The notes beneath the pieces were generated by a model. It saw only the letters and a list, made by a program, of their open reading frames with translations, was not told the DNA's origin and did no database searches. 64,000 nucleotides of DNA. Origin: a virus. Its lineage: Duplodnaviria; Caudoviricetes. The DNA lies in the IMG/VR virus record IMGVR_UViG_3300031993_000033, positions 32,001-96,000 of that record. The stretch is one strand, 5' to 3'. The translations under genes were made by a program, and so were the position numbers. Positions 3,964 to 26,120 of this stretch are shown here, in pieces (position 1 is the first letter of the stretch; each line of letters begins with the position of its first letter).

Positions 3964-3992
3964 ATTATAACATTAATTATTTACTTTGTCAA
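3964..3992 (-). promoter_or_regulatory. sigma-A-type promoter
   Basis: TTGACA-N17-TATAAT, perfect consensus on the - strand. Confidence 0.8.
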
Positions 3993-5830
3993 GAGTTTTT
4001 TGAAATTTTTTCTACAGTATCTCCCATAACCTCTAAAAAGGGGCTTTCCTCACTGCGTCCATCTTGAACAAAGAATAGATTGTCTTTGGCTCTGGTAGCA
4101 GCCACATACAGAATATGAATTTCTTCATAAATGTTGTCATTGCGCTTATGCGGGAACAAGCCGTCATTAAATCCTGCAACAACCACAGTTTTCCATTCTA
4201 ATCCTTTGGCTTTGTGGACGGTACTCAATGCAACACCACCTTCATCGGTAGCATTGATGAAGTCAATATAATTTTTGGCAAATTCACGTATATCATTATA
4301 CTCCCTTGCTTCTTCTACCATAGACTCTATGTTGTCCATAGCATCTAAGTATGCGTCCTCATTACCTTTGTTTTGATCTTTAACGGCTTTCGCTATATTC
4401 ATCTTCTTAATAAGGCTTCTCAAAGCAGTTGCAGCATTTTTATATTTATAATCTCGTATATGTTCTACACCCTCCACAAAATCAATTATATTGCCATAGC
4501 ACCTATCTTTTGGATATACTGCATACATCGCCGCATCAAAGAGTGAAAGCTTGCGCCTTCTTGCTTTTTCTTCAATCTTATTGAGAGTTGCCTTGCCGAT
4601 ATAGCGTAAGGGAGTGTTAATTACCTTTAAGAAAGCCTTATCATCGTTGGTATCAACAACCAACTTTAAATATTCGCACATGAGCTTGATTTCTCTGGGG
4701 ATTCCGTCTTTACCATTAAAATAACATGGTATCTTGTGTTTATAAAGGCTACTCTTTAAACTTAACAAAACGGAGTTGGTACGAGCTAAGACAGCGATTT
4801 CACTCCAATCGCCAACTACATCTTTCTGCTCCATAAGAATTTTGGGGACGTACTTATATCCATTCATTATTACAGGCTTAACCCCACCCTTGCGGGCTGC
4901 AATAGCATCCATATAATTTTCATCCTCTGCTTCTTCGGTTATGCTTGCAATTCTGTTTGACGTTTCCACAATAGCTTCGGAGCAACGATAGTTTATAGGT
5001 AAGTGAATTACATTCAAATTGTCAAAATCTTTATGCGACCTTAAAAGGTATCTTGAATCTCCGCCTTTAAAACTATAAATGTTCTGTAAACCATCACCCA
5101 CCATAAAAATGTTGCACTTAGCTGCCATGAGTTTAACAAACTCATACTGATCTCCCGACAAATCTTGACACTCGTCGATAAAGATATAATCATACTTATT
5201 CTGTACGTAATCTTTCAAATCTTCGTTTGTCTTTAGGAGGTTAGTGGCTTTCCAACACATCATATCATAACTAATAAAATTGTGAGATTCCATGTAGTTG
5301 AGATAGTCTCTATATATCTTATCGAGGTATTTATCCTCAAAATAATCCTCAAAACCCTTGATATGCTTTGAGTTTTTACAGAGCCTTAAACCAACATATC
5401 TTAGCATTGCTTCTGGGAAGTCGTCATTATGGCTATTTGACTCCATGTCATATTTATGAACAATGGGCGTCATTATATCAATCAGCCCGTACTTTTCGGT
5501 TTTGCCTGTATGATAATCTACCTTGCTATATTTTTCAGTAATGACAGTGGGGGACAACCCCGAATGAGTTACGCAACCTAACGCCGCAGAATGAATAGTG
5601 CTCACCACAACTGATTTGAGAGAAATATCCTTATCTACCAATCTCGACTTCATATTGTCTACCGCTGGCTTACTAAAGGCAATGCATAATATTCTATTAG
5701 GCGGAACAACTTTTGAGAGCCTATAAACCCTATCTACCAAAACAGTGGTTTTACCTGAACCTGCCGTAGCAATGCAAGCGGCACTGCTATCACAGTTAAT
5801 TGCATCTAATTGATACTGATTAAACTCCAT
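3989..5830 (-). CDS. UvrD/Rep/PcrA-family (SF1A) helicase
   Basis: ATAGSGKT Walker A, IDECQD, VGDGLQNIYSF, NYRC, STVHKAKGLEW, YVAATRAK. Confidence 0.92.
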   Translation of the reverse strand: MEFNQYQLDAINCDSSAACIATAGSGKTTVLVDRVYRLSKVVPPNRILCIAFSKPAVDNMKSRLVDKDISLKSVVVSTIHSAALGCVTHSGLSPTVITEKYSKVDYHTGKTEKYGLIDIMTPIVHKYDMESNSHNDDFPEAMLRYVGLRLCKNSKHIKGFEDYFEDKYLDKIYRDYLNYMESHNFISYDMMCWKATNLLKTNEDLKDYVQNKYDYIFIDECQDLSGDQYEFVKLMAAKCNIFMVGDGLQNIYSFKGGDSRYLLRSHKDFDNLNVIHLPINYRCSEAIVETSNRIASITEEAEDENYMDAIAARKGGVKPVIMNGYKYVPKILMEQKDVVGDWSEIAVLARTNSVLLSLKSSLYKHKIPCYFNGKDGIPREIKLMCEYLKLVVDTNDDKAFLKVINTPLRYIGKATLNKIEEKARRRKLSLFDAAMYAVYPKDRCYGNIIDFVEGVEHIRDYKYKNAATALRSLIKKMNIAKAVKDQNKGNEDAYLDAMDNIESMVEEAREYNDIREFAKNYIDFINATDEGGVALSTVHKAKGLEWKTVVVAGFNDGLFPHKRNDNIYEEIHILYVAATRAKDNLFFVQDGRSEESPFLEVMGDTVEKISKNS

Positions 5831-6878
5831 GATTTTTTTCCTCCACTTCTATAAGTTTATATTTACCGTCTTTGTTTAGTTCTTCTATCTCATCCATCTT
5901 GGCTAACAGCCTCTTGCCAATACTAAAATTGCCAATGCAGATTTTTGAAAGAAACTCATAAGCCATTAAATAATCAGCTTCTTCAAAATTCATGTTTGGA
6001 TTCTCAATTCTCTTAACGGCATTATCATACACACTTTCCCGCAGTTCCTTGCCAAGCCCCATTACTAATCTATCATAGCTCATAAACTCATTTCTGTAAA
6101 GACGACACTGCTTTTCATTAACAATATAAATCTCATAAATGGGAAACACATTCATCACATTACAAGAGCCAAGCTTTTCATGATAGTATCTATCCCACTC
6201 TCCTGACTTACTACTAAACCGTCTATCCCTGTCTGTCTTAACACCAGTCATTTCATCTGCATACTTTAATGCTTCTGTGTAGATTTTCATATCTTCATCG
6301 GTGGCAATTGTGGTTTTGCCCGATACATTAAATCCCTCCCCGTTAGGAGTTGCCTTGCACCAATAGAATACATAGTTTTTCTTATATACCACCAGATTCA
6401 TCTTAGTCAAGTAGTCTAACGTCTGTCGTATATAGTAATTAATCTTGCCTGTAACATGGTCAAAGTAATCATAGAGTAAACTTATTTGTAACTCCAACAC
6501 ATCAGAAGTTGTGTGCAGATCTTTATTCATTATCGAATAATAACGATTTACCATATCAATGCTATGAGCCAAAGACATCATGCCGAGAATAATCTTACCG
6601 TCCTTTGACTTATCTAAAATATGTTGCATCACCAAAGGACACGTATATTTATACAGCCCCTTTGTAGTCTTGATATAATCTGGTGTCAGTGGAACTTTTT
6701 TAAAATTCGTCAACTTATACTCGCCACCACCCACAGGAACAACCGTACAATACTGCGACGCTCTTTCCATCACTCGCTTCTTATTGTAACCAGATAGTTT
6801 ACCATCGGTTTCAAACTTCTTAATTTGAGCTTCAGTCCCATATCTTTGAACTAACTCTAATTCTGAAATTTTTTCCAT
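5820..6878 (-). CDS. hypothetical protein
   Basis: Long ORF; GAGG SD before MEKISEL start; no motif recognised. Confidence 0.75.
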   Translation of the reverse strand: MEKISELELVQRYGTEAQIKKFETDGKLSGYNKKRVMERASQYCTVVPVGGGEYKLTNFKKVPLTPDYIKTTKGLYKYTCPLVMQHILDKSKDGKIILGMMSLAHSIDMVNRYYSIMNKDLHTTSDVLELQISLLYDYFDHVTGKINYYIRQTLDYLTKMNLVVYKKNYVFYWCKATPNGEGFNVSGKTTIATDEDMKIYTEALKYADEMTGVKTDRDRRFSSKSGEWDRYYHEKLGSCNVMNVFPIYEIYIVNEKQCRLYRNEFMSYDRLVMGLGKELRESVYDNAVKRIENPNMNFEEADYLMAYEFLSKICIGNFSIGKRLLAKMDEIEELNKDGKYKLIEVEEKNHGV

Positions 6879-7154
6879 TAAATCCCTCACTTTTCTGTTA
6901 AACTTTAAAATTTTTGAGCATTTTTTAATTGACATTTTTACCGATATATCGTCATTTGCAAACATTATCGTAGCACCAAACACCACAGTTATTTAGTTTA
7001 CATATACTGAGGTACTTTGTGCTACACACATTTCTCATGAACGCCTATAATTAGCCAAAACACCACCTCATTTTTTATTTGTTTTTTTAGAAGTTATTTC
7101 TAATTTCTTTCTCTGCCAGTGCAGAACTATCCCCACTCTTTTCTTCCCAATCCC

Positions 7155-7183
7155 ATTATAACACTAATTTCTTACTTTGTCAA
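7155..7183 (-). promoter_or_regulatory. sigma-A-type promoter for the leftward operon
   Basis: TTGACA-N17-TATAAT on the - strand, similar to the one at 3964-3992. Confidence 0.8.
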
Positions 7184-7712
7184 GCCCCTAAAAGAAAAAA
7201 GTTGTCCCTACTGTAATAGTAGCCATGACTTCTTCGGTAGCCCATAATAAAAAAAATAATTCTTTTTCTCCTAAAGGTCGCCCCAACTCGTTCTGTAACG
7301 GCAAGAATCAGAGTTGCCACCACCAAAGAAAAAGTCCGCAAAACTCCCCATTCGTCCCAAAGCCCCATATTTCGCAGAGAAGTGGGGATTTTGGTTGGTT
7401 TTGGTCTAAAAATGCTGGGATTCGCATTATCTCTAAAAGGCTATTTACGGGGTTTTGTCCGAAATTGGTGACGATGAAAAGTGACAGTTTTTGTCGGAGG
7501 GTATGAAAATATTCATATGACTGTGATTGAACACCTTATCCCTATCGCTGCGCTGAATCCGGTATCCTAAATGTAAAATATCCCCACGGATTATACATCC
7601 AGTAAACGGCTATAAACAGCTAAAAAATCAAACAATTGAATTGTCCAAATGCAATTGTTTAAAATCTTATTTTATTAATATCTCTTTAATGGTTACAAGC
7701 TCCTAAAAAAAA

Positions 7713-7752
7713 TGAGAATCATTCTCATATTTGAATTTGAGAATCGTTCTCA
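7713..7752. promoter_or_regulatory. tandem Fur-box-like 7-1-7 palindromes
   Basis: TGAGAATCATTCTCA (7713-7727) and TGAGAATCGTTCTCA (7738-7752). Confidence 0.5.
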
Positions 7753-8347
7753 TTTTGTTCGCTATATGCACAAAAGTATACAAAGGTGAATTTTTGTATA
7801 CTATGTATTATAATTTTTAATAGTATTAACTATCATAGTCAATCCATTTTACACTAAACGCCAAAAAATATACTATTGTGCAATATGCACAACTTTCCAC
7901 AACTAAAGCGCGACTTTCAACAGCCTTGAAACGTCGATATATAGCCACAAAACAGTAAAATGCGCTGTAATGCCGTTTGTAACATATGGGTAATATAATA
8001 TCATTGCTTTTTGAAGAACGTCAAAAAAGAGTATTTTGGAGCGTCTGGGAGTGTGCGAGATCAGCGTATTTGATTAACGATTTTTACTTAGAGGCGGAGG
8101 ATGCAATTTGTAGTAAATAAGTTAATAATTAAAAATGATATGATATTATGAAAATAAATTTAACAAAATATCCGTACTGGCTGCGATAAAAAGTAAAATA
8201 TATAACAAACTGTTGGCTCCGATCTGGATGTATGTTAGAATTAACTAACAAATTGCTTCTGTATATATAATGTATTATAAAGGCAGCATATAATTAACAA
8301 ATAATATTTATTCACAAAACAAATACAAAACATTCATAAAATATTCA

Positions 8348-8376
8348 TTGACATTATTCTAATTATGTGGTATTAT
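8348..8376 (+). promoter_or_regulatory. sigma-A-type early promoter
   Basis: TTGACA-N17-TATTAT with extended -10 TG. Confidence 0.75.
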
Positions 8377-8471
8377 ATAATCACAGAAACGAAAACAACA
8401 CAAAAAGCTAAACGATGAAGGTTTAGCAAATATCACAAAAAACTGAATATAAAGTTTGTACAAAATGACTA

Positions 8472-8500
8472 TTGACAAACATTCAGATATGTGATATACT
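8472..8500 (+). promoter_or_regulatory. sigma-A-type early promoter
   Basis: TTGACA-N17-TATACT with extended -10 TG. Confidence 0.75.
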
Positions 8501-8824: not shown

Positions 8825-9499
8825 ATGATGTACACTAATATTTTAAAGTCTTTACAGGCTGAAAACACAAACCGCATAAACAACGCTATAAAGGCTATAA
8901 ATGATAATAATATAGCTTTACAGCGTTACGCAACACAGGCAAGATGGAGCGCATACTTCAATCAGAATTTAAGCCGTGAAAAGTGTGTGGAATACACCAC
9001 AAACCGCATAAAAAAGGAAGCTGAAAAGAGCTTAAAAGCTGATATAGCAAGCCTTGAAAAGTACGAAAACGCACCTACAATTGAAGCTATTCAGATTAAT
9101 ATTGATTGGAAGCGTTCAAGTGTATGGGGATATAATCCACACGTTACACTCCGCATATGGTATGAAGGTATATTTGACATTGAAGAATATACAGCAAAAG
9201 CAAGCGGCTGTAATTACGACAAAAGATCACACGCTGTAGCAAGCGCACTGAATCAGTGTGCAGCTATAAAGGCTTTACTTTGTAACATGAAGGAAAAAGA
9301 AATTGAAAACGGCACGGAAATAAAAAAGACTGTAAGCGGGCTTGACATAAATCCGCATTCTTCAGGCTATGGAGCTATACCCTTTGTTGATGGTTGCGGA
9401 ATGTCAGCAATTGAAAATTTACTGGACAAATGCGGCTTTAAACTTACAAAAGAGCACGGCACAAAAACGACTGATTATTATTGGTTTGACCGCAAATAA
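8825..9499 (+). CDS. hypothetical early protein
   Basis: ORF with AAGGAGG SD. Confidence 0.8.
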   Translation: MMYTNILKSLQAENTNRINNAIKAINDNNIALQRYATQARWSAYFNQNLSREKCVEYTTNRIKKEAEKSLKADIASLEKYENAPTIEAIQINIDWKRSSVWGYNPHVTLRIWYEGIFDIEEYTAKASGCNYDKRSHAVASALNQCAAIKALLCNMKEKEIENGTEIKKTVSGLDINPHSSGYGAIPFVDGCGMSAIENLLDKCGFKLTKEHGTKTTDYYWFDRK

Positions 9500-9606
9500 A
9501 ATTCAAATTTCAATGCAGAGTGACGCGGGATTTTTCCCGCGGTAATGCAGCCGGAGGCGGTCACAAGCCCGCTGAATCTGTAAATATATCTTTTGGAGGT
9601 CATACT

Positions 9607-10005
9607 ATGAAAAAGTGTAAAATCAGATTGACGGACAACAGCAAAAAGTTAATTTCTATGCTGGAAATTGATGATGTAAAAGCTATGATTCAGGAATTGC
9701 AGAATCAGGAGCTTGAAACAGATATTTTCAATCTCATTCCCGTTGCTATGGGATGTATTAAAAATTCAACATGGAGCTATTATGACGTAACAATGGAAAT
9801 ATGTAGAAATGCAAGAGTACCATATAATTACTACACGGAAAATAGTGCATACTATGATGTATGGGTAAATTTCAAGGCATTCAATGATTTTGACGGTTTT
9901 TATGTTGTTGGTATTTGCTTATCGGATATTTACAGCATATCAGAGGACAACAAACAGGAAATAAGACAGCATATGTATGTAAGAGAATACACGGAAAATA
10001 AATGA
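9607..10005 (+). CDS. hypothetical early protein
   Basis: GGAGG SD before ATG 9607. Confidence 0.75.
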   Translation: MKKCKIRLTDNSKKLISMLEIDDVKAMIQELQNQELETDIFNLIPVAMGCIKNSTWSYYDVTMEICRNARVPYNYYTENSAYYDVWVNFKAFNDFDGFYVVGICLSDIYSISEDNKQEIRQHMYVREYTENK

Positions 10006-10022
10006 AATGGAGGTTTAAAGCT

Positions 10023-10265
10023 ATGGCAAGACAGAAAATTACTATGGAAAAGCAAGTGAGAAATACGGTTATATATAACGATATTCTCAAGGCTATAGGT
10101 GGAAAAGCTAATGATACAATATCCATATACATTGACAGGAAATTTTACGCACATTATTCACGCTATTTAGGGAATGATGTATTTGACGATATTGCAGCAC
10201 ATAGCAACAAATCAGTTGATTTGATTGACGATCAGACAGGGGAAATTTTACGGCATAAAGCATAA
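10023..10265 (+). CDS. hypothetical early protein
   Basis: GGAGG SD before ATG 10023. Confidence 0.7.
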   Translation: MARQKITMEKQVRNTVIYNDILKAIGGKANDTISIYIDRKFYAHYSRYLGNDVFDDIAAHSNKSVDLIDDQTGEILRHKA

Positions 10266-10373
10266 TAAAATCAAAGTTTTAACATTTAGGCGGCTATTTG
10301 AATACGGAAATTTGAATAGCTGTCTATGTGCTAAAACACATAAATCTATTGGAAATTTAAAGGAGGCTATACT

Positions 10374-10718
10374 ATGAAATATCATAAGATACCAAAAATT
10401 GAAAAGTCGGTATGTACCGCGGAGCAGAAAATTGCATATAACTATGCATCCACATATGCGGATAGATACCGCGATACATGGAAAAAGACAGCGGATCAGT
10501 ATTGTGAATTTCAGAAGTCAGAATTTATACATGAAGCTGTTGAATGGTGTATGAAGCTGATGCGGAATAATGCGGAAATTCAGCGGAAATATGACATTGA
10601 CGCTATATTTTGCGCGCTTAATGCTGGAATGCGGAATTACTTTGAAGCTAAATATAGTATACTGTCAAGCTATGAAGAAATAGGAAAAATGTTTCCTGCT
10701 AACTATTTAAATGTATAA
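10374..10718 (+). CDS. hypothetical early protein
   Basis: AAGGAGG SD. Confidence 0.75.
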   Translation: MKYHKIPKIEKSVCTAEQKIAYNYASTYADRYRDTWKKTADQYCEFQKSEFIHEAVEWCMKLMRNNAEIQRKYDIDAIFCALNAGMRNYFEAKYSILSSYEEIGKMFPANYLNV

Positions 10719-10731
10719 AGGAGGTTTAATT

Positions 10732-11019
10732 ATGAATAGACGTGAAATGTTAAACTGGATTAAATCAGAAATTTGTCCTAAACTTGACTTGAGTCAAGAG
10801 CTTGACATAAAATGTATACTTGACGTTGTGGGAAAATTCCGCATAAATCAGCACTACAAAACAGATACACCAATGACCGCAGCCGTTAATGAATATGGTC
10901 ATTTGTTTATCAATGGTATTCACGCCGGACAGATCACAAATAAAATACCTTTTGGAAATTTTGACGAGGAAGGTTATTTCTACGAAGGAAAAATATTAGC
11001 AAGATCAGAAGTCGAATAA
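10732..11019 (+). CDS. hypothetical early protein
   Basis: AAGGAGG SD before ATG 10732. Confidence 0.7.
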   Translation: MNRREMLNWIKSEICPKLDLSQELDIKCILDVVGKFRINQHYKTDTPMTAAVNEYGHLFINGIHAGQITNKIPFGNFDEEGYFYEGKILARSEVE

Positions 11020-11109
11020 ACCTATATACTATGGGCTTGACGGAAATTCAAGCCTATAAATATAAGCTTATTTACCACATAAAACACATATTCTAAAGGA
11101 GGAAAAATT

Positions 11110-11562
11110 ATGAAAACAATGTCAATCTTTTTGGCAATAGCTTTAACGTCAAGTCCTATGCCAGCGGAAAATTATTATTCCTCTACTTCTCCTGAAGTAG
11201 CAACTGAGATTATAGAGCTTGTTATTAATGGAGAATATAGGGAATATTTAGACTTTAATGGTGACGGAAATTTAAACATTGCCGACGTTGTAGGCGTAAG
11301 CAAGCGTTATTCTGATAACTGTAAATACGGCAATGAGATAACATTAACAAGTGATACAGTGTACGATATTGCAACGGAAAATTATAGCGATGAGCTTATT
11401 TACTGGGAGATTGACCGCGTAAACGGAAATTTAACAAGACAGTACGAGCTTGTAGCAAGTGAGATTATGACAGCGGAAATTTACATGGAATTTGAAAACT
11501 ATTCAGAATGTATTACTGTTGAAGTCAATCCCTTTACGGAGACAATAACAGTAATTGATTAA
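11110..11562 (+). CDS. secreted protein with one dockerin/EF-hand-like repeat
   Basis: Signal-peptide-like N-terminus; DFNGDGNLNIADVV Ca-binding loop. Confidence 0.6.
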   Translation: MKTMSIFLAIALTSSPMPAENYYSSTSPEVATEIIELVINGEYREYLDFNGDGNLNIADVVGVSKRYSDNCKYGNEITLTSDTVYDIATENYSDELIYWEIDRVNGNLTRQYELVASEIMTAEIYMEFENYSECITVEVNPFTETITVID

Positions 11563-11740
11563 GGAGGCGTGATTATGTATTGCACATTTAATGGAAAAAT
11601 CTGCTTAATGATGTGGGATATACAAGCGGAAAAATACGTTTATATTCCTGAGTCAGTGTGGTATAGCTTTACAGAAAAAGCAAGATCACGCTATACAGAA
11701 GAACGCACAAATTAAATGATTATAATATATCGGAAAGTTG

Positions 11741-11769
11741 TTGACAAAGTAACAAATGTGTGGTATACT
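11741..11769 (+). promoter_or_regulatory. sigma-A-type promoter
   Basis: TTGACA-N17-TATACT, extended -10. Confidence 0.75.
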
Positions 11770-11851
11770 ATAATCACAGGGAAAATCCCTGAATAGTTAT
11801 ACCCTAACAAGTAAACAAATGAAAAGTGTATTTTAACAGGAGGTCACGATT

Positions 11852-12337
11852 ATGAAAAGAACGTTTAATTTTGGAAAAATAGCCGCTTATGGTACAAGAA
11901 AAATCAATGCTGTTGATATTACCATTGAATTAACGGAAAAAGATGGTAAAAAGGTATTTTCAGCAAGCGGAAATGTATGGAATGCAAGGCATACAGATAT
12001 TATTAGAGGCGGTCAGTGTTTAGATTATATAGCAACAACAGCAAAAGGGCATAATCCTACATTTAAAAAAATATATAGACTTTGGAAAAATTACCACTTA
12101 AATGATATGCACGCAGGTACAAGAGAACAGGAAAATGCACTTAATGAGGCTGTAAAAGCTGGAAAAATTCAGAGCCGATCAGCAAATAACTATACCGAGT
12201 GTTGTGAATATCTAAAATCAATTGGATTATATGAAGTTGAGTTTAACGGAAAAATGTATAAATATGGTCATGGTTGGCTGTATTGGGAAATTCCTACAGA
12301 GGATATAGCAGCCATTGAAGCGTTAATAAAAGAGTGA
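11852..12337 (+). CDS. hypothetical protein
   Basis: AGGAGG SD; W..YHLNDMHAG motif typical of phage early hypotheticals. Confidence 0.75.
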   Translation: MKRTFNFGKIAAYGTRKINAVDITIELTEKDGKKVFSASGNVWNARHTDIIRGGQCLDYIATTAKGHNPTFKKIYRLWKNYHLNDMHAGTREQENALNEAVKAGKIQSRSANNYTECCEYLKSIGLYEVEFNGKMYKYGHGWLYWEIPTEDIAAIEALIKE

Positions 12338-12433
12338 TTCTATCATACGGAAAAAGCTTGACGGGTAGCTTACAATACCCGTCACCATAGACAATAAACC
12401 ATAAACCAACGGAAAATTAAGGAGGTCAAAACT

Positions 12434-12721
12434 ATGAATGAACAGGCTATTATTGACAAGGTAAACAAGATCGTTTCGGAAATTCGCAAAGAATATACCG
12501 AGTACAAAGGACAGTATTATTTACTTACTCATGTTATCAATCTTGAATTTCTTATGGGCAAATACTTTGCACTCATGGAAATTTTACTGAATAACATCGG
12601 AGAAAATCCGCTGAATCCTTTTGACAATGCGTATTGCACAGAGTACGAAAAGAATAAGGCTTTTATTGAAGCCGTTACAACACATATTGACGGTATGTAT
12701 AAGAAGCTGAAGGAGGTTTAA
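12434..12721 (+). CDS. hypothetical protein
   Basis: AAGGAGG SD. Confidence 0.7.
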   Translation: MNEQAIIDKVNKIVSEIRKEYTEYKGQYYLLTHVINLEFLMGKYFALMEILLNNIGENPLNPFDNAYCTEYEKNKAFIEAVTTHIDGMYKKLKEV

Positions 12722-12723
12722 TT

Positions 12724-13044
12724 ATGGCAAATCAGATATTTGCAACACTTGACAAGTCGGAAAAATGGCTGGATAAACAGCGTGAAATTGACGGATATTC
12801 AGTTGACGGATTTACAGTTATTCCTTGCTTTAGAGGAAAATCAGTTGAGATCACATTCTTTAGGTTTGTAAAGCCTTTAGGATATGAGAACAAATGCAGC
12901 TATGAGATACCGACGGAAATTCGATCACAGTGCTATATGAAAATCATTAGCAAGTTAAAGAGATGCAGTTTTGTTGACGGAAAAGTTATCATATCAATAA
13001 GCGGTCAGAAATACTGCATAGGAACGTACACAACGGAAATTTAA
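12724..13044 (+). CDS. hypothetical protein
   Basis: AGGAGG SD. Confidence 0.7.
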   Translation: MANQIFATLDKSEKWLDKQREIDGYSVDGFTVIPCFRGKSVEITFFRFVKPLGYENKCSYEIPTEIRSQCYMKIISKLKRCSFVDGKVIISISGQKYCIGTYTTEI

Positions 13045-13057
13045 GGAGGAAGGAAAA

Positions 13058-13312
13058 ATGAAATACTATGAAATTGAATTTGCTCATAGAGCAGAAATTG
13101 AGGATGAGAGCTTTATCGGTACACCCGATAGATATAGTATCTGTATCTTAGCGGAAAGAGAGCCTTCATATGAAGAAGCGGAAATTTTCTGCAAAGAGGA
13201 TATGAACAATTTAGGTTATGACATGGTAAGTGATGTGTTGGAAATTAGCAAGGAAGAAGCCTACAATTTCTTTGATATGGAAAATGCAGACAACTTTCCG
13301 ATATTCAAGTAA
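13058..13312 (+). CDS. acidic hypothetical protein
   Basis: AAGGAGG SD; D/E-rich. Confidence 0.7.
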   Translation: MKYYEIEFAHRAEIEDESFIGTPDRYSICILAEREPSYEEAEIFCKEDMNNLGYDMVSDVLEISKEEAYNFFDMENADNFPIFK

Positions 13313-13413
13313 ATAAAATGACTGTTTAAACGTGAGCCGAAGCGGTCAGAAATGACCGTTTCCACATACGCTTAAACGGAAAATCAAAACAGCCGAAAGG
13401 CAAGGAGGTCAAT

Positions 13414-13758
13414 ATGTTAGTATTCAATTTCAATCATACGGAAAAGCAGCTTGAATTAGCTTGCAATGAGTTTTCGGAAATTCAGCTTGTAGCGGACAAT
13501 GAAGTATGCAAGGGCTGGGATATGCGACTCGGACACAGTGAGTTGAATATCACAAAGTATGGAGACTTCTACCGTGTAGGTGACTGCTACAATGGAAAAA
13601 TCCTGAGATCATTCAAGTGTAGTTTTGACGGAAATATGATAACAATTTATTCCGCTAATGACAACGGCAGAGAGCTTAAAGCGGAAAAATATTTAAAGAA
13701 ATATGCACAGTGTGCAATGAGAGTATTTGCTCTTGTACAGTGTGGAAAAATTAATTGA
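13414..13758 (+). CDS. hypothetical protein
   Basis: AAGGAGG SD. Confidence 0.7.
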   Translation: MLVFNFNHTEKQLELACNEFSEIQLVADNEVCKGWDMRLGHSELNITKYGDFYRVGDCYNGKILRSFKCSFDGNMITIYSANDNGRELKAEKYLKKYAQCAMRVFALVQCGKIN

Positions 13759-13770
13759 GGAGGTTTAATC

Positions 13771-13983
13771 ATGTACGAATGCAATATCACTATAAAGCAG
13801 CCAACAGGGAAAGTCTCACAGAATAGAATAATGTCAAGGTTTGAGACAACACCTGAAATGATAGCGAGATCGGAAATGTGCTGGTATAGCACAGGAACAA
13901 TAATTGAAGTCAATGGAAAAGCCTTTAGGAAAATTCATGTTGATGATGCCGTTAAAGGCTATGCAGAGTTAGAGGAGGTTTAA
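13771..13983 (+). CDS. hypothetical protein
   Basis: GAGGAGG SD. Confidence 0.7.
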   Translation: MYECNITIKQPTGKVSQNRIMSRFETTPEMIARSEMCWYSTGTIIEVNGKAFRKIHVDDAVKGYAELEEV

Positions 13984-13985
13984 TT

Positions 13986-14360
13986 ATGGGATATGAGAGC
14001 AGAATAATTGTAGCAAAAAGGACTGTGTGGGAAGGATCAGGTCTTGTATGGTTTGAGAAGCTATCGGAAATGTGGTTAAGCAAAGTCGGTTATAACTTCC
14101 CTGAAATCTTCACTACGGAAATTGAATCCAATATCTATGGTGACGGTTTCAAGGAAAATTCAGAAGAAGAATATGAGCTGACCGAGGACAGATACGGAGA
14201 CATCTGCAAGTACACAGACATACAGACGGTCATTGACTGGCTGGAAAATGCAGAAGCAAAAAAGCATTACAGAAGGTTTACTCCTGCTATTGCAATGCTA
14301 AAGGCATATGCAGCGGAGAAATGGGAAGGCGATATAGTGGTGATCCACTATGGATATTAA
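13986..14360 (+). CDS. hypothetical protein
   Basis: GAGGAGG SD. Confidence 0.7.
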   Translation: MGYESRIIVAKRTVWEGSGLVWFEKLSEMWLSKVGYNFPEIFTTEIESNIYGDGFKENSEEEYELTEDRYGDICKYTDIQTVIDWLENAEAKKHYRRFTPAIAMLKAYAAEKWEGDIVVIHYGY

Positions 14361-14366
14361 GGAGGT

Positions 14367-14558
14367 TTGATTATGAACTTAGACGAAGCTATCAAATTAG
14401 TATTAAAAGGTAAAGCTATTAGAGCTAAAGAATGGGAAGAAGGTATGTACTTTAAGATTCGATGGCGTATGTTTGAGACTGAGGGCAGCGTAAGAAGTAA
14501 ACTTTGGAAATGGAAGGATTCAGAGTTTGAAGAAGTGCTGTTTGATTATACCGAATAA
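14367..14558 (+). CDS. hypothetical protein
   Basis: AAGGAGG SD; true start may be ATG 14373. Confidence 0.6.
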   Translation: MIMNLDEAIKLVLKGKAIRAKEWEEGMYFKIRWRMFETEGSVRSKLWKWKDSEFEEVLFDYTE

Positions 14559-14593
14559 AATAACACTTTCATTTAGCAGAGAGGAGTTTTAAT

Positions 14594-14908
14594 ATGCCTT
14601 ACAAATCGGAAAAACAAAAGCTTCCGCCTGAATTAGATCGCAGACGTAAGTTGAATGATGCACAGAAAGACGAGATAAAACATAAATACAGCACTGGACT
14701 TTACAGTCTTAACAGACTTGCTAAAGAGTATAATGTAAGTAAGAAAACAGTATTGCTTATTGTCAATCCTGAAAGCAAACGGAAAAATGATGAACGTATT
14801 AAAGAACATTGGCGTGATTATGTGCCTACAAAAGAAGAACATAATGCCATTATGAGAGAACACAGGGCATACAAACATAGAGTTTTAAAGGAGAAAAATT
14901 ATGTATAA
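14594..14908 (+). CDS. helix-turn-helix DNA-binding protein
   Basis: KL...Q..EI......SLNRLAKEYNVSKKTVLLIV HTH pattern. Confidence 0.7.
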   Translation: MPYKSEKQKLPPELDRRRKLNDAQKDEIKHKYSTGLYSLNRLAKEYNVSKKTVLLIVNPESKRKNDERIKEHWRDYVPTKEEHNAIMREHRAYKHRVLKEKNYV

Positions 14909-15052
14909 AGCAACAATAACTTATATGACAGGCAGAATGAGAGGTATGACGGTATATCGTCTAACTTCTGATAAATTTGAACGTGGAATGATGTATAACG
15001 ATTCGCTTACAAACAATCGGTTTTATGTTGATTACGTTACAAAGATAGGAGA

Positions 15053-15838
15053 ATGATTATTATGACAAAGGAAAAATATCTTACACTTATAAACAAGGCT
15101 ATTGAAAATCTGAAAGATAATGATGACAACTACGGACAGACACCGATAGACTTCATGAGGAAAAACGGAGTTAAGTCTACAGATAATATGACAATATTCC
15201 TTGACAGTGTAGGAGCTTACCTTGAGGAAATCAGGTGCGGACTTCTCGCAGACATGGAAGCAGAAGAAGCAAAGAAGAACGGAAAATCAAGCGTGTTATC
15301 TACTATCAAGAAGTTATGCAACGACAATTACAAGACACAACAAAGTGTAAGACCACAACTTGCATATGCGAATTATGACGAAGCGGAAAAGAAGTATATT
15401 ACGGTTAGCGGTTATTGGCTCATTATGTCGGAAAATCCTGCTGGTATGGTGGAGATGCCTGAGAACGTCAAGAAGGATATAAAAGAACCTTTAAAGTATA
15501 GACAGTGGATTCCTAACAAGTATGAGATGCACAAAGTTGAACTGCCGACACGGGCAAAGATCAGCACTTACTTGAAGGCTCGTAAAGCCACAAGGAATAA
15601 GCACGACAAAACATGGGACAGGCTTGTATTTGAGGACTTTGCCGTTAAGGGAGAATGGCTCGAAGCAGCTATGAAGATAACAGGCTCATCGGAAATTTAT
15701 GTCAAGGACAGTATTCACGCTCTGCTTATGGAAGGCAATGGCTACACTATGGTGCTTATGCCCATAAAGAATAAAGAGACAGACAAGAATACTGGCGAGG
15801 AAAAGCATATGCCGATTACAAATTTTGAGGTGGTATAA
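15053..15838 (+). CDS. hypothetical protein
   Basis: Long ORF with GGAG SD. Confidence 0.75.
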   Translation: MIIMTKEKYLTLINKAIENLKDNDDNYGQTPIDFMRKNGVKSTDNMTIFLDSVGAYLEEIRCGLLADMEAEEAKKNGKSSVLSTIKKLCNDNYKTQQSVRPQLAYANYDEAEKKYITVSGYWLIMSENPAGMVEMPENVKKDIKEPLKYRQWIPNKYEMHKVELPTRAKISTYLKARKATRNKHDKTWDRLVFEDFAVKGEWLEAAMKITGSSEIYVKDSIHALLMEGNGYTMVLMPIKNKETDKNTGEEKHMPITNFEVV

Positions 15839-15839
15839 T

Positions 15840-16121
15840 ATGAACACTCTTACACTTGCAATTGCACTATCGGAAAAATTATACAAGTCACATATTAAAG
15901 TGCTTAAATACTTTTTGGAAAATCCAATCTTTGAAGGCTCGTACAGAGAGCTTTCAAGTATGCTATACGGCAAACCTAATCTGCAAAGCAACGCTCGGAA
16001 ATTCGTCAATGAGCTTGCGGATATGGGAGTGCTTATGGTGGAAATTAATAATGACTGCCCATCAAGAGATCAGAACAGGACGTATATACAGTTAAATCCG
16101 AATTGGTTACAGGCTTTATGA
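15840..16121 (+). CDS. putative winged-helix DNA-binding protein
   Basis: SYRELS...NARKFVNELADMGVL wHTH-like pattern. Confidence 0.5.
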   Translation: MNTLTLAIALSEKLYKSHIKVLKYFLENPIFEGSYRELSSMLYGKPNLQSNARKFVNELADMGVLMVEINNDCPSRDQNRTYIQLNPNWLQAL

Positions 16122-16127
16122 GGAGGG

Positions 16128-16349
16128 ATGATTATGTCTACACCGGAAACTATAGAAGAAATGAGGCGACGCAGAGAGTATGCTGAAAAAGCAAATGAAA
16201 ATCTGCGCAGGTGTAAGTGTTGTAATGTTTGTCGCAATGCAGAAACTGGCTTTAGTGACGAGGCAATTCCATATTATCAGGTGATATGCAAGATTACAGG
16301 GGAAAATCGCAAGGGACGTTCAGGATTTATGTGTCCGCATTGGAAGTGA
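16128..16349 (+). CDS. Cys-rich hypothetical protein
   Basis: ORF with GAGGAGG SD. Confidence 0.6.
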   Translation: MIMSTPETIEEMRRRREYAEKANENLRRCKCCNVCRNAETGFSDEAIPYYQVICKITGENRKGRSGFMCPHWK

Positions 16350-16359
16350 GGAGAAGAAA

Positions 16360-16542
16360 ATGAGAGTTATTATTGATGGAAAAACATATCGCTTAAAAGA
16401 TGGCGTTAAGATACGCTTACAGGGTATTGCATTACTGACACTTGGTATGTTATGCCATAAAGTAAATGCAGACGGAGCAGCGGTATTTATGTGGCTTTTA
16501 GGTGTGACAATGCTGTTTGGAAAAATTGATAGTAAACGCTAA
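16360..16542 (+). CDS. small membrane protein
   Basis: Two hydrophobic segments, GAGGAG SD. Confidence 0.6.
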   Translation: MRVIIDGKTYRLKDGVKIRLQGIALLTLGMLCHKVNADGAAVFMWLLGVTMLFGKIDSKR

Positions 16543-16552
16543 CAATTTATTC

Positions 16553-16581
16553 TTGACAATTGGAAATTTGCGTGACATAAT
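16553..16581 (+). promoter_or_regulatory. sigma-A-type promoter for the recombinase gene
   Basis: TTGACA-N17-CATAAT with TG extension. Confidence 0.6.
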
Positions 16582-16596
16582 ATTAGCATAAGGAGG

Positions 16597-17601
16597 TTGA
16601 TGACCATGTTGGGAAATTTAAAAGAAACTTGTAGAGTAATTGACATCTCACAGAGACAACAGTCGGAAAATTCTTTTGACTTTGATTTTGACAGCCTTAT
16701 TCCAGACGTAGAACAACTCACTCCCGAAGAAGAACAGGCGATAGCCGAAGCCGAGTCAAAACTCAAAGAACGTCAGGGCTTTGACTGTATGCCGATTGGA
16801 ATATTGAATGAGCTTCTGAGATATTTTCTTGACAGGCGTGACTTTCGATCTGTATTCTGGATTGTCTTACAGGCAAATACTGGACTGAGATATTCCGATG
16901 TTATCAAATATCGGCGCATTGATTTGTTGAATGAGCATAATAAATTCAGAGAGTCCATTCTTGAACAAGAACGGAAAACTGGTAAGCAGAGAGTCAACTT
17001 TATAAATGATGCTATCAAAATAGCTACACTAATGCTCATATGGGAAAATCCCAGTATAAAGCCTTTAGACTTGATGATTAGCTCTGAATACAATGATAAG
17101 GCTCACAACAAAGGCTATGAAAAAGAAACTTATATCAACGCCAATGGCGAAGAACGTTGTTTGAGAGTGAACGGAAAATACGTTTATAAGCTCGATGAAA
17201 ACGGAAACAAAATTCCGAAGGCTCTTGGTCGCAGTCGCAGTTGTACTATAATGCGCGATGCTATGGTAGAAGGACTTGGTATATGCCTTAAAAATGATGG
17301 TCGCACTAAGAACAATGACGGAGCTTATTTGAAGCTGGCAAGTCATTCCATTAGAAAAGCATACTCCGCTGGTGTTGTAGAGCAGTTTGAAAAGATGTTT
17401 GACAGCAATGAGGCTTACGCACACGCAGCGGCAATGGAACAGTTGCAGTACGATCTTAACCATTCAAGCAGATCTATGACTTATCATTATATAGGCGATT
17501 ATGCCGAGACAAAACGCAAAACAAACATGAATATGAATCTTGGTTTGGAAATTTTGAAGCCATATTTTGAGGCGGAACGAAAAAGATATTTAGAGAGGTG
17601 A
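16597..17601 (+). CDS. tyrosine recombinase (XerC/D/integrase family)
   Basis: Catalytic set: TGLRYSD (R), ERKTGK (K), SHSIRK (HxxR), LNHSS (H), TYHYIG (Y). Confidence 0.9.
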   Translation: MMTMLGNLKETCRVIDISQRQQSENSFDFDFDSLIPDVEQLTPEEEQAIAEAESKLKERQGFDCMPIGILNELLRYFLDRRDFRSVFWIVLQANTGLRYSDVIKYRRIDLLNEHNKFRESILEQERKTGKQRVNFINDAIKIATLMLIWENPSIKPLDLMISSEYNDKAHNKGYEKETYINANGEERCLRVNGKYVYKLDENGNKIPKALGRSRSCTIMRDAMVEGLGICLKNDGRTKNNDGAYLKLASHSIRKAYSAGVVEQFEKMFDSNEAYAHAAAMEQLQYDLNHSSRSMTYHYIGDYAETKRKTNMNMNLGLEILKPYFEAERKRYLER

Positions 17602-17605
17602 GAAT

Positions 17606-18115
17606 ATGGGAACTACATCATATAAAAAGGCTCATATGAGCGAAGCGATAACAATTCCGGTATCGGAAATTCAGCTTACAGAAGCGGTGCATATTGCCGG
17701 AAATCCACACTACACCTGTGTTGGAAAATCCAGCGAGGACTGTTGCGTGATTGTACGCAGAAAGCGCGGCGGCTATGCGCTTGTGAGTGGCTGGGCTGAC
17801 TATCGGGAGTGTATTATGCAAGGCTATGGTGCTGTAAAGGCTATCGTGATGAATACGAAACGTGGAAATTTCATGAGGCAGTATGGCGACACATATCTGC
17901 CCCTATCGGAAATTTATGTGCCGGAGCATTTTGCGAAGTCTACTCCTCGTGATTGGAAAATCCAAAGAGTAAAACACAGACTCGGAGATAAGAAGAAACT
18001 GGATAAGCCGATAACTATTAATCAGGAACGCTATATCGTAGACGGTTACACACGGTATCTTGTTGCAAGGGAAATCGGTATGCGGTATGTGCCTGTAAGG
18101 CGGATAAATGATTAA
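17606..18115 (+). CDS. ParB/Srx-like domain protein
   Basis: KPITINQERYIVDGYTRYLVA ParB-N motif. Confidence 0.65.
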   Translation: MGTTSYKKAHMSEAITIPVSEIQLTEAVHIAGNPHYTCVGKSSEDCCVIVRRKRGGYALVSGWADYRECIMQGYGAVKAIVMNTKRGNFMRQYGDTYLPLSEIYVPEHFAKSTPRDWKIQRVKHRLGDKKKLDKPITINQERYIVDGYTRYLVAREIGMRYVPVRRIND

Positions 18116-18140
18116 AAGATAAAAATATATCGGAAAAGTA

Positions 18141-18169
18141 TTGACAATTGCAATAGGAAGCAGTATAAT
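18141..18169 (+). promoter_or_regulatory. sigma-A-type promoter upstream of the tRNA cluster
   Basis: TTGACA-N17-TATAAT perfect consensus. Confidence 0.8.
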
Positions 18170-18211
18170 AGATAACAGAGGGGAACGGAAAATTCCCTCT
18201 GGAAGAAATAT

Positions 18212-18286
18212 TGGGGATTCGCCAAGTGGTGAAGGCACAGGACTTTGACTCCTGCATCGTGGTTTCGAGTACCACATCCCCAACCA
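18212..18286 (+). tRNA. tRNA-Gln (TTG)
   Basis: TGGGGAT/ATCCCCA acceptor, CAGGA-CTTTGAC-TCCTG anticodon arm, TTCGAGT T-loop, encoded CCA. Confidence 0.9.
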
Positions 18287-18514
18287 ACGGTTTCATTTCA
18301 TTTGTATGTCCTTTCAAGCCCTGTGGCGAGGCTCTAAACCGCCACAAATATGGGAGCAAACCCGATTGATAAGCAGGCGCAATGCTGCTTTTGTTCCACA
18401 CTTCGCTTTTAATCATCGTAAGGGTGGTAGCCAGTCCACCCTCTCCCACCAAAATCTACGCTATACCTTGTGTATAGTTGACCTCCTAACGCCCGTCATC
18501 GTGGCGGGCAATAT

Positions 18515-18600
18515 GGACTTGTGGCGAAATTGGTAAACGCACTTGGTTCAAACCCAAGCGGTCTTAGACCTTGCAGATTCGAGTTCTGTCAAGTCCACCA
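18515..18600 (+). tRNA. tRNA-Leu (CAA)
   Basis: GGACTTG/CAAGTCC acceptor, CTTGG-TTCAAAC-CCAAG anticodon arm, long variable arm, encoded CCA. Confidence 0.88.
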
Positions 18601-25397: not shown

Positions 25398-26120
25398 ATG
25401 TCAGAAACAAAGAAGAAGTCGGTGTTTGAAACGCTGGCGAGCATCGACACAACAAATGATGTGGTGTCTAAGGGCGACGGTAAGTATTCTGTTACTTATG
25501 TTCCGTGGGCGCGTTCAATCGAAAAACTGCGTATGTATTATCCTGATGCCATTATTGAGGAGTGTACTTTTAAGACTCAGAAGTTAGTCTCGGTGCTTGC
25601 CTCTAAAACAGCAGAAGGGGAGACATACCATAGTGAGCTTGTCGAGGTTGAACTTCCCTACGGCACAGACGGTAATACCTGTTGGGTTAAGACCTGCGTT
25701 AAGATACCGTCACAGGGCATTGAGGAATACTGCACCCTGCCTATAATGGACAACCGCAATCAGGCTGTTCCTGCGGCAAACGTAAAGAGCACAGACGTAA
25801 ACAAGGCTCTCAGGCGTTGCGTGGCAAAGAATATAGCGTACCTCGGATATGGCTTATCATCATGGTTAAAGGATGACTACACTGATCTTGCAAAGGATAA
25901 GAAGGTGTTGGACGGACTTGACAGACAGGACGCTATTGGCAAGTTTAAGGCTAAGATTAAGGACGGCTATGACCGCGATAAGCTGGCTGCTTGGTTACAG
26001 GCAAACTTTGGCGGTTGCAAGAACCCGATGAATCTGAGCGATGAGCTTCTTGAAAGGCTTAACGAGGAGCTTGACAAACTGGACATTAAGGACTTTCAGT
26101 CCGAGAAGAAATCTAAGTAA
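25398..26120 (+). CDS. Sak3/DUF1071-like single-strand annealing protein
   Basis: Y.PWA....YPDA, LPIMDNRNQAV, DVNKALRRC.AK..A..G.GL; adjacent to ssb. Confidence 0.75.
   Translation: MSETKKKSVFETLASIDTTNDVVSKGDGKYSVTYVPWARSIEKLRMYYPDAIIEECTFKTQKLVSVLASKTAEGETYHSELVEVELPYGTDGNTCWVKTCVKIPSQGIEEYCTLPIMDNRNQAVPAANVKSTDVNKALRRCVAKNIAYLGYGLSSWLKDDYTDLAKDKKVLDGLDRQDAIGKFKAKIKDGYDRDKLAAWLQANFGGCKNPMNLSDELLERLNEELDKLDIKDFQSEKKSK

Follow-up and report, generated by a model that had tools for sequence, protein, structure and literature searches.

The AddAB enzyme of Bacillus subtilis has 5'-AGCGG-3' as its Chi. KOPS and SRS are octamers that lie kilobases apart on chromosomes and guide FtsK/SpoIIIE by converging on dif/XerCD. 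The stoperators of cluster A mycobacteriophages are oriented with transcription in both genome arms. The first-step-transfer region of T5 and the terminal early region of SPO1 contain small early genes with strong host-type promoters; we know of no comparable word array in either of them. The nearest known parallel to the locus discussed here seems to be clustered Chi sites, by which the DNA-degrading enzymes of a host are restrained: of the 23 Chi of the lambdoid E. coli phage LLS, 20 have the active orientation and form a cluster at the end free of terminase, and in Pseudomonas phage MD8 the two orientations stand at 32 to 0 (Genome Res 2025, PMC12315714).

The locus belongs to a rumen phage with a genome of 104.7 kb. 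It is an array of ~100 co-oriented words GGAAA(A/T) on the + strand of 9292-18192, written through ~23 small genes and their spacers. Unless stated otherwise, positions refer to the window, i.e., the whole stretch of 64,000 nucleotides that was analysed. Like the Chi clusters of LLS and MD8, the array consists of many copies of a short asymmetric word in near-uniform orientation that run through genes, and, as placed solely by synteny with SPbeta, it would be concentrated beside the packaging site on the terminase-free side. Unlike in these phages, the word has 5-7 bases instead of 8, occurs ~100 times, once per 90 bases, instead of 20-32 times, and is purged in the array orientation from the remaining genome. 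Also, the Chi-rich lambdoid phages of the LLS class have no recombination module, whereas this phage has a Sak/nuclease module. With the Chi of Firmicutes the word shares the five-base class, and in SPbeta Chi is the top one-strand-purged pentamer, whatever the direction of the genes (see below). SPbeta, however, has no array, and AGCGG is not polar in the present phage and was discarded as its polar word.

Other similarities are less complete. As with KOPS/SRS, skewed words converge beside a tyrosine recombinase and the opposite orientation is avoided; in contrast to these systems, the arms are extremely unequal (9 kb vs 95 kb) and GGAAA is unskewed on the contig of a candidate host, the host being uncertain. 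The array resembles cluster A stoperators in having dozens of asymmetric sites co-oriented with transcription, yet the purge tracks the DNA strand and the sites are mostly intragenic; no matching repressor was identified. The likeness to T5 and SPO1 is an early block of ~9-13 kb that stands behind strong promoters and is probably first into the cell.

The early block and its surroundings

The phage is considered SPbeta-like because of its gene for a YonO-type single-chain RNA polymerase, the N-terminal part of which lies at 2-679 on the - strand of the window (29932-32679 of the genome for the gene). The YonO homolog shows 38-39% identity across 95-98% of the query; a DnaE-type polymerase with PolIII alpha domains and divergent late and early arms complete the SPbeta-like picture. 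SPbeta practises headful packaging and has its pac site within the divergent region yonP-yonR. By synteny with this interval, the pac site of the present phage would fall into the divergent control region at 7155-8347, which also contains a perfect leftward promoter (7183-7155). The array starts ~0.8 kb to the right of the region equivalent to yonP-yonR.

The rightward early block is opened by two strong sigma-A-type promoters at 8348-8500 (+ strand), TTGACA-17-TATTAT and TTGACA-17-TATACT, both with TG. A self-cleaving ribozyme of the Twister-P5 type (9514-9572, +) stands at the array start. Farther along the + strand we find an internal promoter that belongs to a repeated promoter element (11741-11769), a small HTH_7 protein (14594-14908), which is among the few block genes common to relatives, a tyrosine recombinase (16597-17601) and a small protein with a ParB-like domain (17606-18115). 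The recombinase, in which R, K, HxxR, H and Y are all invariant, is apparently intact and active, and it marks the array end in all six genomes; a recombination site was not found near this end (~18.2 kb). On the right the array is bounded by a perfect promoter, TTGACA-17-TATAAT, and a hairpin behind it (18141-18202, +), in the loop of which lies the last CGGAAA of the array. At three promoters, the internal one and that of the boundary included, a CGGAAA precedes the -35 box by 4 nt. Genes for tRNA-Gln(TTG) and tRNA-Leu(CAA) follow directly (18212-18600, +). Sak is encoded at 25398-26120 and a PD-(D/E)XK nuclease at 26596-27333.

The word array

The original prediction had counted, by hand, about 52 CGGAAA on the + strand of 8.9 kb and had described the word as rare on the - strand and nearly absent past 18.2 kb. 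The exact count for 9315-18191 is indeed 52; the - strand has a single copy, at 13295, and the other 55 kb of the window contain only four more on the + strand. None of 100 shuffles matched the total CGGAAA count. On the + strand of 9292-18192 there are 103 GGAAA, with a spacing of ~90 bases, against 5 on the - strand, which means a short asymmetric word in overwhelmingly one orientation. Of the 103, 98 are GGAAAW, a word found 10 times on the + strand of the remaining window. The informative part of the motif is GGAAA, with A or T behind it and C (52) or T (28) in front; the array sites extend to a consensus of ~10 bases, A-(A/T)-C-G-G-A-A-A-(A/T)-T-(T/C). In every block gene the copies lie on the sense strand. 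The GGAAA arrows diverge at ~8.8 kb and converge at ~18.2 kb. No second GGAAA-enriched region was found across the whole 104.7-kb genome; the enrichment is thus confined to one block and not uniform.

Of course, such an array could be a by-product of codon usage, of amino-acid composition or of a foreign origin of the block, an idea that we regard as practically dead. The sense strands of the block are purine-rich, and the Glu codon GAA supplies half of the coding copies. Yet the word occurs in all three reading frames (52/27/12) and, as had been claimed, also outside genes, with 13 copies in spacers. Nor do synonymous codons account for it: when they were shuffled per gene, 49.7 +/- 4.9 GGAAA and 13.3 +/- 2.9 CGGAAA were obtained, whereas 91 and 44 are observed. 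This null is conservative, since the codon usage it retains is already skewed by the motif. The enrichment therefore survives codon correction, and frame counts and shuffles together led us to reject the artefact. The by-product idea is further contradicted by the host-like contig, which has no comparable word density, by the complementary purge in the remaining genome and by the relatives, in which most block genes are non-homologous, while the word density is unchanged.

The layout recurs, as a test in relatives revealed, in five other mosaic genomes, in the order divergent promoters, twister ribozyme, array, intact tyrosine recombinase and tRNA genes. Each of the five genomes with a strong array (this phage, G001, G008, G009 and C34) has Twister-P5 where the array begins, and tRNA genes come after the array in every array-bearing genome; in G002 the array is weak and altered. 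The array word is identical although terminase, portal, YonO, primase-helicase and polymerase differ between the genomes. In orthologues of a 261-aa gene (80% nucleotide identity), six of eight sites are kept, which is more than neutral decay predicts. Megablast of the sequence against phages and plasmids gave no matches, nor did searches with the UvrD-like helicase against viral contigs, with the primase-helicase against genome contigs, or with TerL, the 261-aa protein and the recombinase against PDB sequences. Nothing relevant on the motif itself was found in the literature.

Purge of one strand outside the array

Outside the block, the + strand of the genome has 22 GGAAA where 81 are expected, and the - strand is near expectation. 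In rightward genes outside the array, the + strand shows 17 vs 57 expected and the - strand 23 vs 28.6; in leftward genes the corresponding figures are 4 vs 22 and 72 vs 95.6. Control words with the same base composition are not purged. That the purge follows the strand in leftward genes too is repeated in G001 and C34. Because it tracks the DNA strand in genes of either direction, a polar signal at the DNA level is indicated rather than a transcript signal. The original prediction, a polar signal overlaid on coding sequence, holds, and is narrowed by these data to the DNA.

An unbiased scan, in which ~1,000 pentamers were ranked by their depletion on one strand only, put GGAAA at rank 1 in this phage (G000), in G001 and in C34, at rank 3 in G009 and at rank 8 in G008; in the array-less relative G012 it reached rank 289. 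The same scan of SPbeta yielded, at rank 1, the complement of the B. subtilis Chi, which occurs 4 times vs 23.4 expected on the depleted strand and 35 times vs 32.5 on the other. In SPP1, a lytic phage of B. subtilis, Chi is enriched on both strands without a polar purge. The one-strand purge of true Chi in SPbeta, a parallel to the present case, is directly testable in B. subtilis; a purge of the active orientation has its sole support in this parallel. With extreme local enrichment and a genome-wide purge of one strand, the pattern is among the cleanest polar DNA words.

What may read the word

Our best explanation, a tentative one that still falls short of being probable, is that the array is a Chi-like control word for an AddAB-type nuclease of the host, concentrated at the exposed, first-injected end. 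The ~100 co-oriented words would be a signal in the DNA itself, and the machine that reads them, in a single orientation, would travel only one way along the phage chromosome. Most likely, this reader would be a host helicase-nuclease of the AddAB/RecBCD class, to which the word or its complement, 5'-WTTTCCG-3', would be Chi-like; the functional word may sit on either strand. The array would be the 9 kb adjoining the presumed pac site on the side free of terminase, would face the free end after the pac cut and would be the first DNA to enter a new cell. With a control word every 90 bases, a nuclease that enters there would have degraded no more than a few hundred bases before it was switched to recombination, whereby the early genes would be protected. 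We infer both the identity of the reader and its protective function, and pac position and packaging direction are adopted from SPbeta. On the basis of this synteny, the earlier proposals of first-injected DNA and of translocase-orienting sites, like that of nuclease-controlling ones, appear viable.

Several observations speak for the Chi-like reading: the signal follows the strand; GGAAA is the top one-strand-depleted pentamer, as Chi is in SPbeta; clustered Chi has precedents in LLS and MD8; the phage is of the SPbeta-like type and has its array close to the pac-equivalent region; sites are retained in orthologues beyond neutral decay; and a bacterial bin with a related phage in it contains an AddB homolog and shares a GAGCTT bias. 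That the word stays constant while the phage's own machinery varies favours a reader of the host over a phage-encoded one. Against the Chi-like reading stand the purge of the active orientation beyond the cluster, which is not expected from known Chi biology, the unpolar Chi of SPP1, the phage's own Sak and PD-(D/E)XK nuclease, as Chi-rich lambdoid phages have no recombination module, the candidate host contig, on which GGAAA is unskewed between leading and lagging strand and CGGAAA exceeds shuffles only 1.5-1.7 times on both strands, and the twister ribozyme together with a CPSF/FttA-like nuclease, which hint at RNA-level biology.

Such RNA-level biology would imply that the polycistronic early transcript carries the signal. 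The transcript would be cut by the twister at the block start, and, guided by its GGAAA(A/T) words, the CPSF73/FttA-like beta-CASP nuclease of the phage or an RNase of the host (RNase Y or J, for example) would cleave it, degrade it 5'-to-3' or terminate its synthesis co-transcriptionally, while middle-gene mRNAs would escape for want of the word. We consider this rather unlikely. It would fit the words on the sense strand of all block genes, their strong depletion in middle-gene mRNAs (GGAAAW 6 vs 33.9, GGAAAA 1 vs 18.3), the Twister-P5 at the start of the five strong arrays, the promoters at both array start and end, and a beta-CASP/RMMBL nuclease, closest to TTHA0252, FttA, CPSF73 and IntS11, which all array-bearing genomes possess and G012 and SPbeta lack. 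The leftward genes, however, are purged on their antisense strand and near normal on the sense strand, here as in G001 and C34, which is not expected of a transcript signal unless the entire + strand is transcribed. Moreover, the motif is not preferentially unpaired in RNA (0.596 vs 0.633 with shuffled flanks, p = 0.18), which is unfavourable to the suggested CsrA-type ANGGA sites; and the nuclease of G002 is 84% identical but goes with a weak, altered array, whereas those of G001 and G009 are 37-38% identical and go with strong ones. The earlier idea of an RNA signal is thus weakened by the strand-following purge, and kept as an option by the twister at the block start and the co-occurring nuclease. 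Operator or stoperator sites, at which the recombinase, the HTH_7 protein or some other DNA-binding protein of the phage would silence or time the block, we deem quite improbable. The extended consensus and the CGGAAA upstream of promoters agree with them, and in SPbeta the master repressor, MrpR, is a protein of recombinase fold with a repeated element as its binding site (PMC10516654). A regulator bound to duplex DNA, however, leaves the single-orientation purge in both gene directions unexplained, and the recombinase, the sole block-encoded DNA-binding protein conserved across all array-bearing genomes, retains all its catalytic residues, unlike MrpR. A ParB-like coating, likewise proposed originally, found no specific support.

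The single-strand polarity of the genome-wide purge would also suit words that stop or steer some other DNA motor in a polar manner. This may be envisaged in three ways: a replication-fork brake, which would lead to effectively one-way replication or a rolling-circle switch; KOPS/SRS-like words, which would steer an FtsK/SpoIIIE-type pump to a site of the adjacent tyrosine recombinase; or a brake on the packaging or ejection machinery. The arrows converge at ~18.2 kb beside the apparently active recombinase, which is the array end in six genomes, and KOPS-type systems likewise purge the non-permissive orientation. Yet one word per 90 bases far exceeds the density of known guide-word systems, a word of 5-6 bases is shorter than their octamers, GGAAA is not skewed between leading and lagging strand on the candidate host contig, and, as regards a motor of the phage, terminase, portal, primase-helicase and polymerase are not common to the genomes that have the identical word. 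We consider a motor of this kind rather unlikely as well. Array and purge could, finally, make up an "address label" system, in which a word of five to six bases sets one labelled segment of 9-16 kb apart from the unlabelled remainder of the chromosome, for a direction-sensitive reader other than a Chi-recognising nuclease or an FtsK-type pump. A programmed brake on forks or translocation may be an example, coupled to the twister, tyrosine recombinase and tRNA module by which the array is always flanked. Such a system, which may be previously undescribed, is a possibility to be taken seriously, if not one to be expected.

Some individual readers were discarded. YonO is absent from G001, which has a strong array and the purge, and is present in SPbeta and G012 without an array. 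The terminase and portal proteins of G000 have no homologs in G001 and G002. Sites for the primase-helicase (a pppGGAAA primer on a TTTCCG template) were rejected because the enzyme is absent in G008, G009 and G002 and because general priming does not predict the purge. For the beta-CASP nuclease or the recombinase as specificity determinant, identity patterns do not track array strength. Evasion of Type III restriction explains the removal of one orientation, but leaves the local enrichment, which is 20-fold, unaccounted for; the genome, besides, contains both orientations.

If the Chi-like reading is true, sequence alone would reveal the AddAB-type recognition word of a lineage of uncultured rumen Clostridia that, to our knowledge, has no known Chi, and phages of Gram-positive hosts would use dense Chi shields at their exposed DNA end. 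This would bear on phage survival, recombination-dependent replication and the uptake of CRISPR spacers from injected ends. If it is wrong, the array indicates a new direction-sensitive process in a family of large gut and rumen phages that is itself widespread.

The candidate host

The bacterial bin G003, which holds a related phage, was taken as the candidate host, with some uncertainty in the assignment. It contains a full-length AddB homolog and has the GAGCTT word bias in common with the phage. On its 380-kb contig G003:C18, with the same reservation as to the host, CGGAAA occurs 113 times vs 72.5 on the leading and 71 times vs 41.9 on the lagging strand, i.e., 1.5-1.7 times over shuffles on both strands (over-representation rank 54/2,079). 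GGAAA has no leading/lagging skew on this contig of the uncertain host (rank 307/1,020, log-ratio 0.13).

GAGCTT and TTGAC were considered as co-signals and rejected. No sense-strand word is more over-represented on the host-like contig than GAGCTT(G), and all phage regions are enriched in it; for these reasons it is regarded as a host "dialect" outside the array signal. The excess of TTGAC is partly due to promoters and to overlaps such as TTGACGGAAA.

A one-strand word array in the early genes

The 9-kb early-gene block of the phage under study (window 9292-18192) is filled with copies of a short word that lie almost exclusively on one strand. The core of the word is GGAAA with A or T after it; the base before it is C in 52 copies and T in 28, and A at -2 and T at +2 and +3 are more weakly preferred. 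In the block the + strand carries 103 GGAAA, 98 of them GGAAAW, so that a copy occurs about every 90 bases; elsewhere in the window this strand contains 10 GGAAAW. The original prediction had put some 52 CGGAAA on the + strand of the early region, few on the - strand and hardly any beyond it. The exact figures agree: between 9315 and 18191 there are 52 copies on the + strand and one on the - strand, and the remaining 55 kb add only four + copies. The enrichment is not uniform genome-wide, as no other region of the single 104,704-base phage contig to which the window belongs is enriched in the word.

The word had been said to occur in genes and intergenic DNA alike, and it does: the coding copies fall into all three reading frames (52/27/12), and 13 copies are intergenic. 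Nor does codon choice account for it. When synonymous codons were shuffled within each block gene, 49.7 ± 4.9 GGAAA and 13.3 ± 2.9 CGGAAA were expected, as compared with 91 and 44 observed. This null is conservative, because shuffling retains a codon usage already distorted by the motif.

The array was also found in relatives, namely in five further complete genomes: G001 (106 kb), G008 (109 kb), G009 (113 kb), C34 (122 kb), which was binned in a Eubacteriales MAG, and G002 (115 kb), in which it is weaker and the word looser (ACGGA, GCGGA, TGGAA). Most block genes of our phage and of G001 are non-homologous, yet each block has about 100 copies. In the few orthologous genes six of eight sites are kept at 80% nucleotide identity, which is above the neutral-decay prediction. 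The order of elements does not vary: divergent promoters come first, followed by a Twister-P5 ribozyme, an array of 9-16 kb, a tyrosine recombinase, a strong promoter and tRNA genes. Among 64 viral loci that encode the single-chain RNA polymerase YonO and have enough upstream flank, only the nearest two (L045, L046) have arrays, always of GGAAA. SPbeta has no array. The array is a real, strongly selected and conserved polar DNA word system. In C34 the late arm and the array are separated by an inserted stretch of about 6 kb (27-33 kb in reverse-complement coordinates) whose GC content is 48-55%, as against about 37% in the rest of the genome.

Purge of the word from one strand

Outside the block, GGAAA is depleted on one DNA strand irrespective of gene direction. 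In the rightward genes (50-88 kb of the whole record) the + strand, here the sense strand, has 17 GGAAA where 57 are expected, and the - strand 23 where 28.6 are expected. In the leftward structural genes the + strand is antisense and has 4 of 22 expected, the - strand 72 of 95.6. In the rightward genes only one of the 1,024 pentamers is more depleted than GGAAA, and GGAAAA is seen once (18.3 expected); in the leftward genes + strand GGAAA ranks ninth, after palindromic restriction-type sites. Other words with this base composition show no such depletion outside the block. If each pentamer is scored, with codon correction, for depletion on one DNA strand versus the other, GGAAA comes out first among about 1,000 (+ strand 22 versus 80.7 expected, - strand 98 versus 124). 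The purge is repeated in G001, C34, G009 and G008; G002 shows it weakly, and G012, a relative that has no array, does not show it.

Such a pattern fits a DNA-level signal with a fixed-direction reader and is not predicted by a signal read on transcripts. Of the polar signal overlaid on coding sequence that had been envisaged, the DNA-level polarity thus finds support in the strand purge; the transcript-borne variant does not predict it. The whole genome also strongly avoids CTAG, GGCC, GATC, TTCGAA, GAAGAC, GAAGAG and GAATGC, palindromic and type IIS restriction-type words, on the sense strands of both gene blocks.

Genome layout and the putative packaging site

A YonO homolog (38-39% identity over nearly the full query, E 1e-120) and the gene content identify the phage as an SPbeta-like phage of a low-GC, Shine-Dalgarno-using host. 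Tape-measure protein, portal and terminase are encoded on the - strand; a DnaE-type polymerase, a primase-helicase, the recombination protein Sak, a PD-(D/E)XK nuclease and an intein-containing NrdD on the + strand. The sequencing runs with this phage come from gut metagenomes of bovine and other animal origin. A UvrD-type helicase and, after it, a 388-aa protein without family match (window 3989-6986, - strand) occupy the interval from yonO to the divergent region; this pair is not conserved in relatives.

The late genes of SPbeta form one operon transcribed by YonO (PMC5467207). Its pac, where the genome is opened, lies between yonP and yonR, and headful packaging proceeds from concatemers (bioRxiv 10.1101/2021.11.22.469490). 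By the SPbeta gene map the late and early arms diverge from this interval. In our phage the equivalent region, which contains strong promoters at window 8348 and 8472, is followed on its right, after about 0.8 kb, by the array. Packaging usually runs toward terminase and late genes. If it does so here, the array would face the free end that results from cutting at pac, and would be packaged last and injected first.

A Chi-like word?

SPbeta, the best-studied relative, though without an array, served as a control (NC_001884; L022+L021+L023). The top match of its strand-depletion scan was CCGCT, with 4 versus 23.4 expected on one strand (4-5 copies where 23-26 are expected) and 35 versus 32.5 on the other. 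Its complement, AGCGG, is the Chi of B. subtilis, to which AddAB responds; what SPbeta has purged from one of its strands, regardless of gene direction, is thus the host Chi. This is not just something that B. subtilis phages do in general, since the lytic phage SPP1 is enriched in AGCGG about 1.6-fold on both strands. We know of no published explanation of the SPbeta purge.

A 2025 study describes lambdoid phages in which many co-oriented Chi sites are gathered at the end that terminase does not close; 20 of 23 are in active orientation in LLS, and the ratio by orientation is 32 to 0 in Pseudomonas phage MD8 (PMC12315714). Such clusters are the nearest known kind of feature to the array, which differs from them in word length, density and genome-wide purge. 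Moreover, the LLS class lacks a recombination module of its own, whereas our phage has one.

Because the SPbeta purge hits Chi and these lambdoid phages cluster Chi, our best explanation, a tentative one, is that the word may control a nuclease of the AddAB class in the manner of Chi, its copies being concentrated next to pac. With a copy every 90 bases, a word that is short and weakly recognised would bring an incoming nuclease to a halt within some hundreds of bases. Whether CGGAAA or TTTCCG is the functional strand would depend on the packaging direction. Chi biology does not explain, however, why the active orientation is purged elsewhere in the genome.

The MAG that contains C34 (G003) encodes AddB. 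It holds this one complete circular relative of 122 kb, many fragments of relatives and ordinary bacterial contigs; the contigs concerned are C2, C3, C5, C10, C12, C16, C19, C33, C34 and C74. The sense strands of this bin have the same strong GAGCTT(G) bias as those of the phage, which makes it a plausible candidate host lineage. In a 380-kb bacterial contig of this bin, a candidate host only, GGAAA shows no skew between leading and lagging strands, and CGGAAA is just 1.5-1.7 times over shuffles.

Other readings have to be weighed. That the word acts on transcripts, as an RNA-level signal, is rather unlikely: a twister ribozyme and a CPSF/FttA-like nuclease are at hand, but the antisense purge in leftward genes is left unexplained and the motif shows no structural preference. 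We rate just as low a signal for another DNA motor, which might block replication forks in one direction or guide a pump of the FtsK/SpoIIIE type toward the recombinase. It matches the polarity, and all arrows converge at about 18.2 kb; however, no reader for it was identified and no host skew was seen. Operator-type binding sites are less probable still, as they do not account for an orientation-specific purge.

Candidate readers of the word

Several candidate readers encoded by the phage do not co-occur with the array. YonO is missing from the array-bearing G001; G001 and G002 contain no homologs of the terminase and portal of our phage; G008, G009 and G002 do not have its primase-helicase; and the polymerases of array-bearing genomes are only 23-40% identical. 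Two proteins are common to all array-bearing genomes, a beta-CASP/RMMBL nuclease (genome 26489-27595, - strand; L006:6489-7595) and the tyrosine recombinase. The former is found neither in G012 nor in SPbeta; the latter is absent from SPbeta and weakly matched in G012 (24% identity). The nearest solved relatives of the nuclease, TTHA0252, FttA/aCPSF1, CPSF73 and IntS11, are transcription-termination and RNA-processing nucleases. The identity patterns of neither protein track array strength. A host factor common to related hosts would be the simplest reader.

Boundaries of the array

The self-cleaving Twister-P5 ribozyme (window 9514-9572, + strand) scores 64 bits, with a gathering score of 37.6. 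It is located at the start of the array or early block in all five strong arrays; copies in relatives lie at L002:2848-2906, L133:18011-18071, L041:13173-13236 (- strand) and L129:778-837. Over 113 bases around it our phage and G001 are 99% identical, and the adjacent genes are different.

At the other end, the tyrosine recombinase (window 16597-17601) has no Pfam match and no PDB sequence match; its catalytic residues R, K, HxxR, H and Y are all invariant in six homologs. No large serine recombinase of the SprA type of SPbeta was seen among the ORFs scanned, a subset of all. Directly after the genes for the recombinase and a ParB-like protein follows a stretch (window 18141-18600) with a perfect sigma-A-type promoter, a 5' hairpin, tRNA-Gln(TTG) and tRNA-Leu(CAA). 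All relatives have tRNA genes at the equivalent place.
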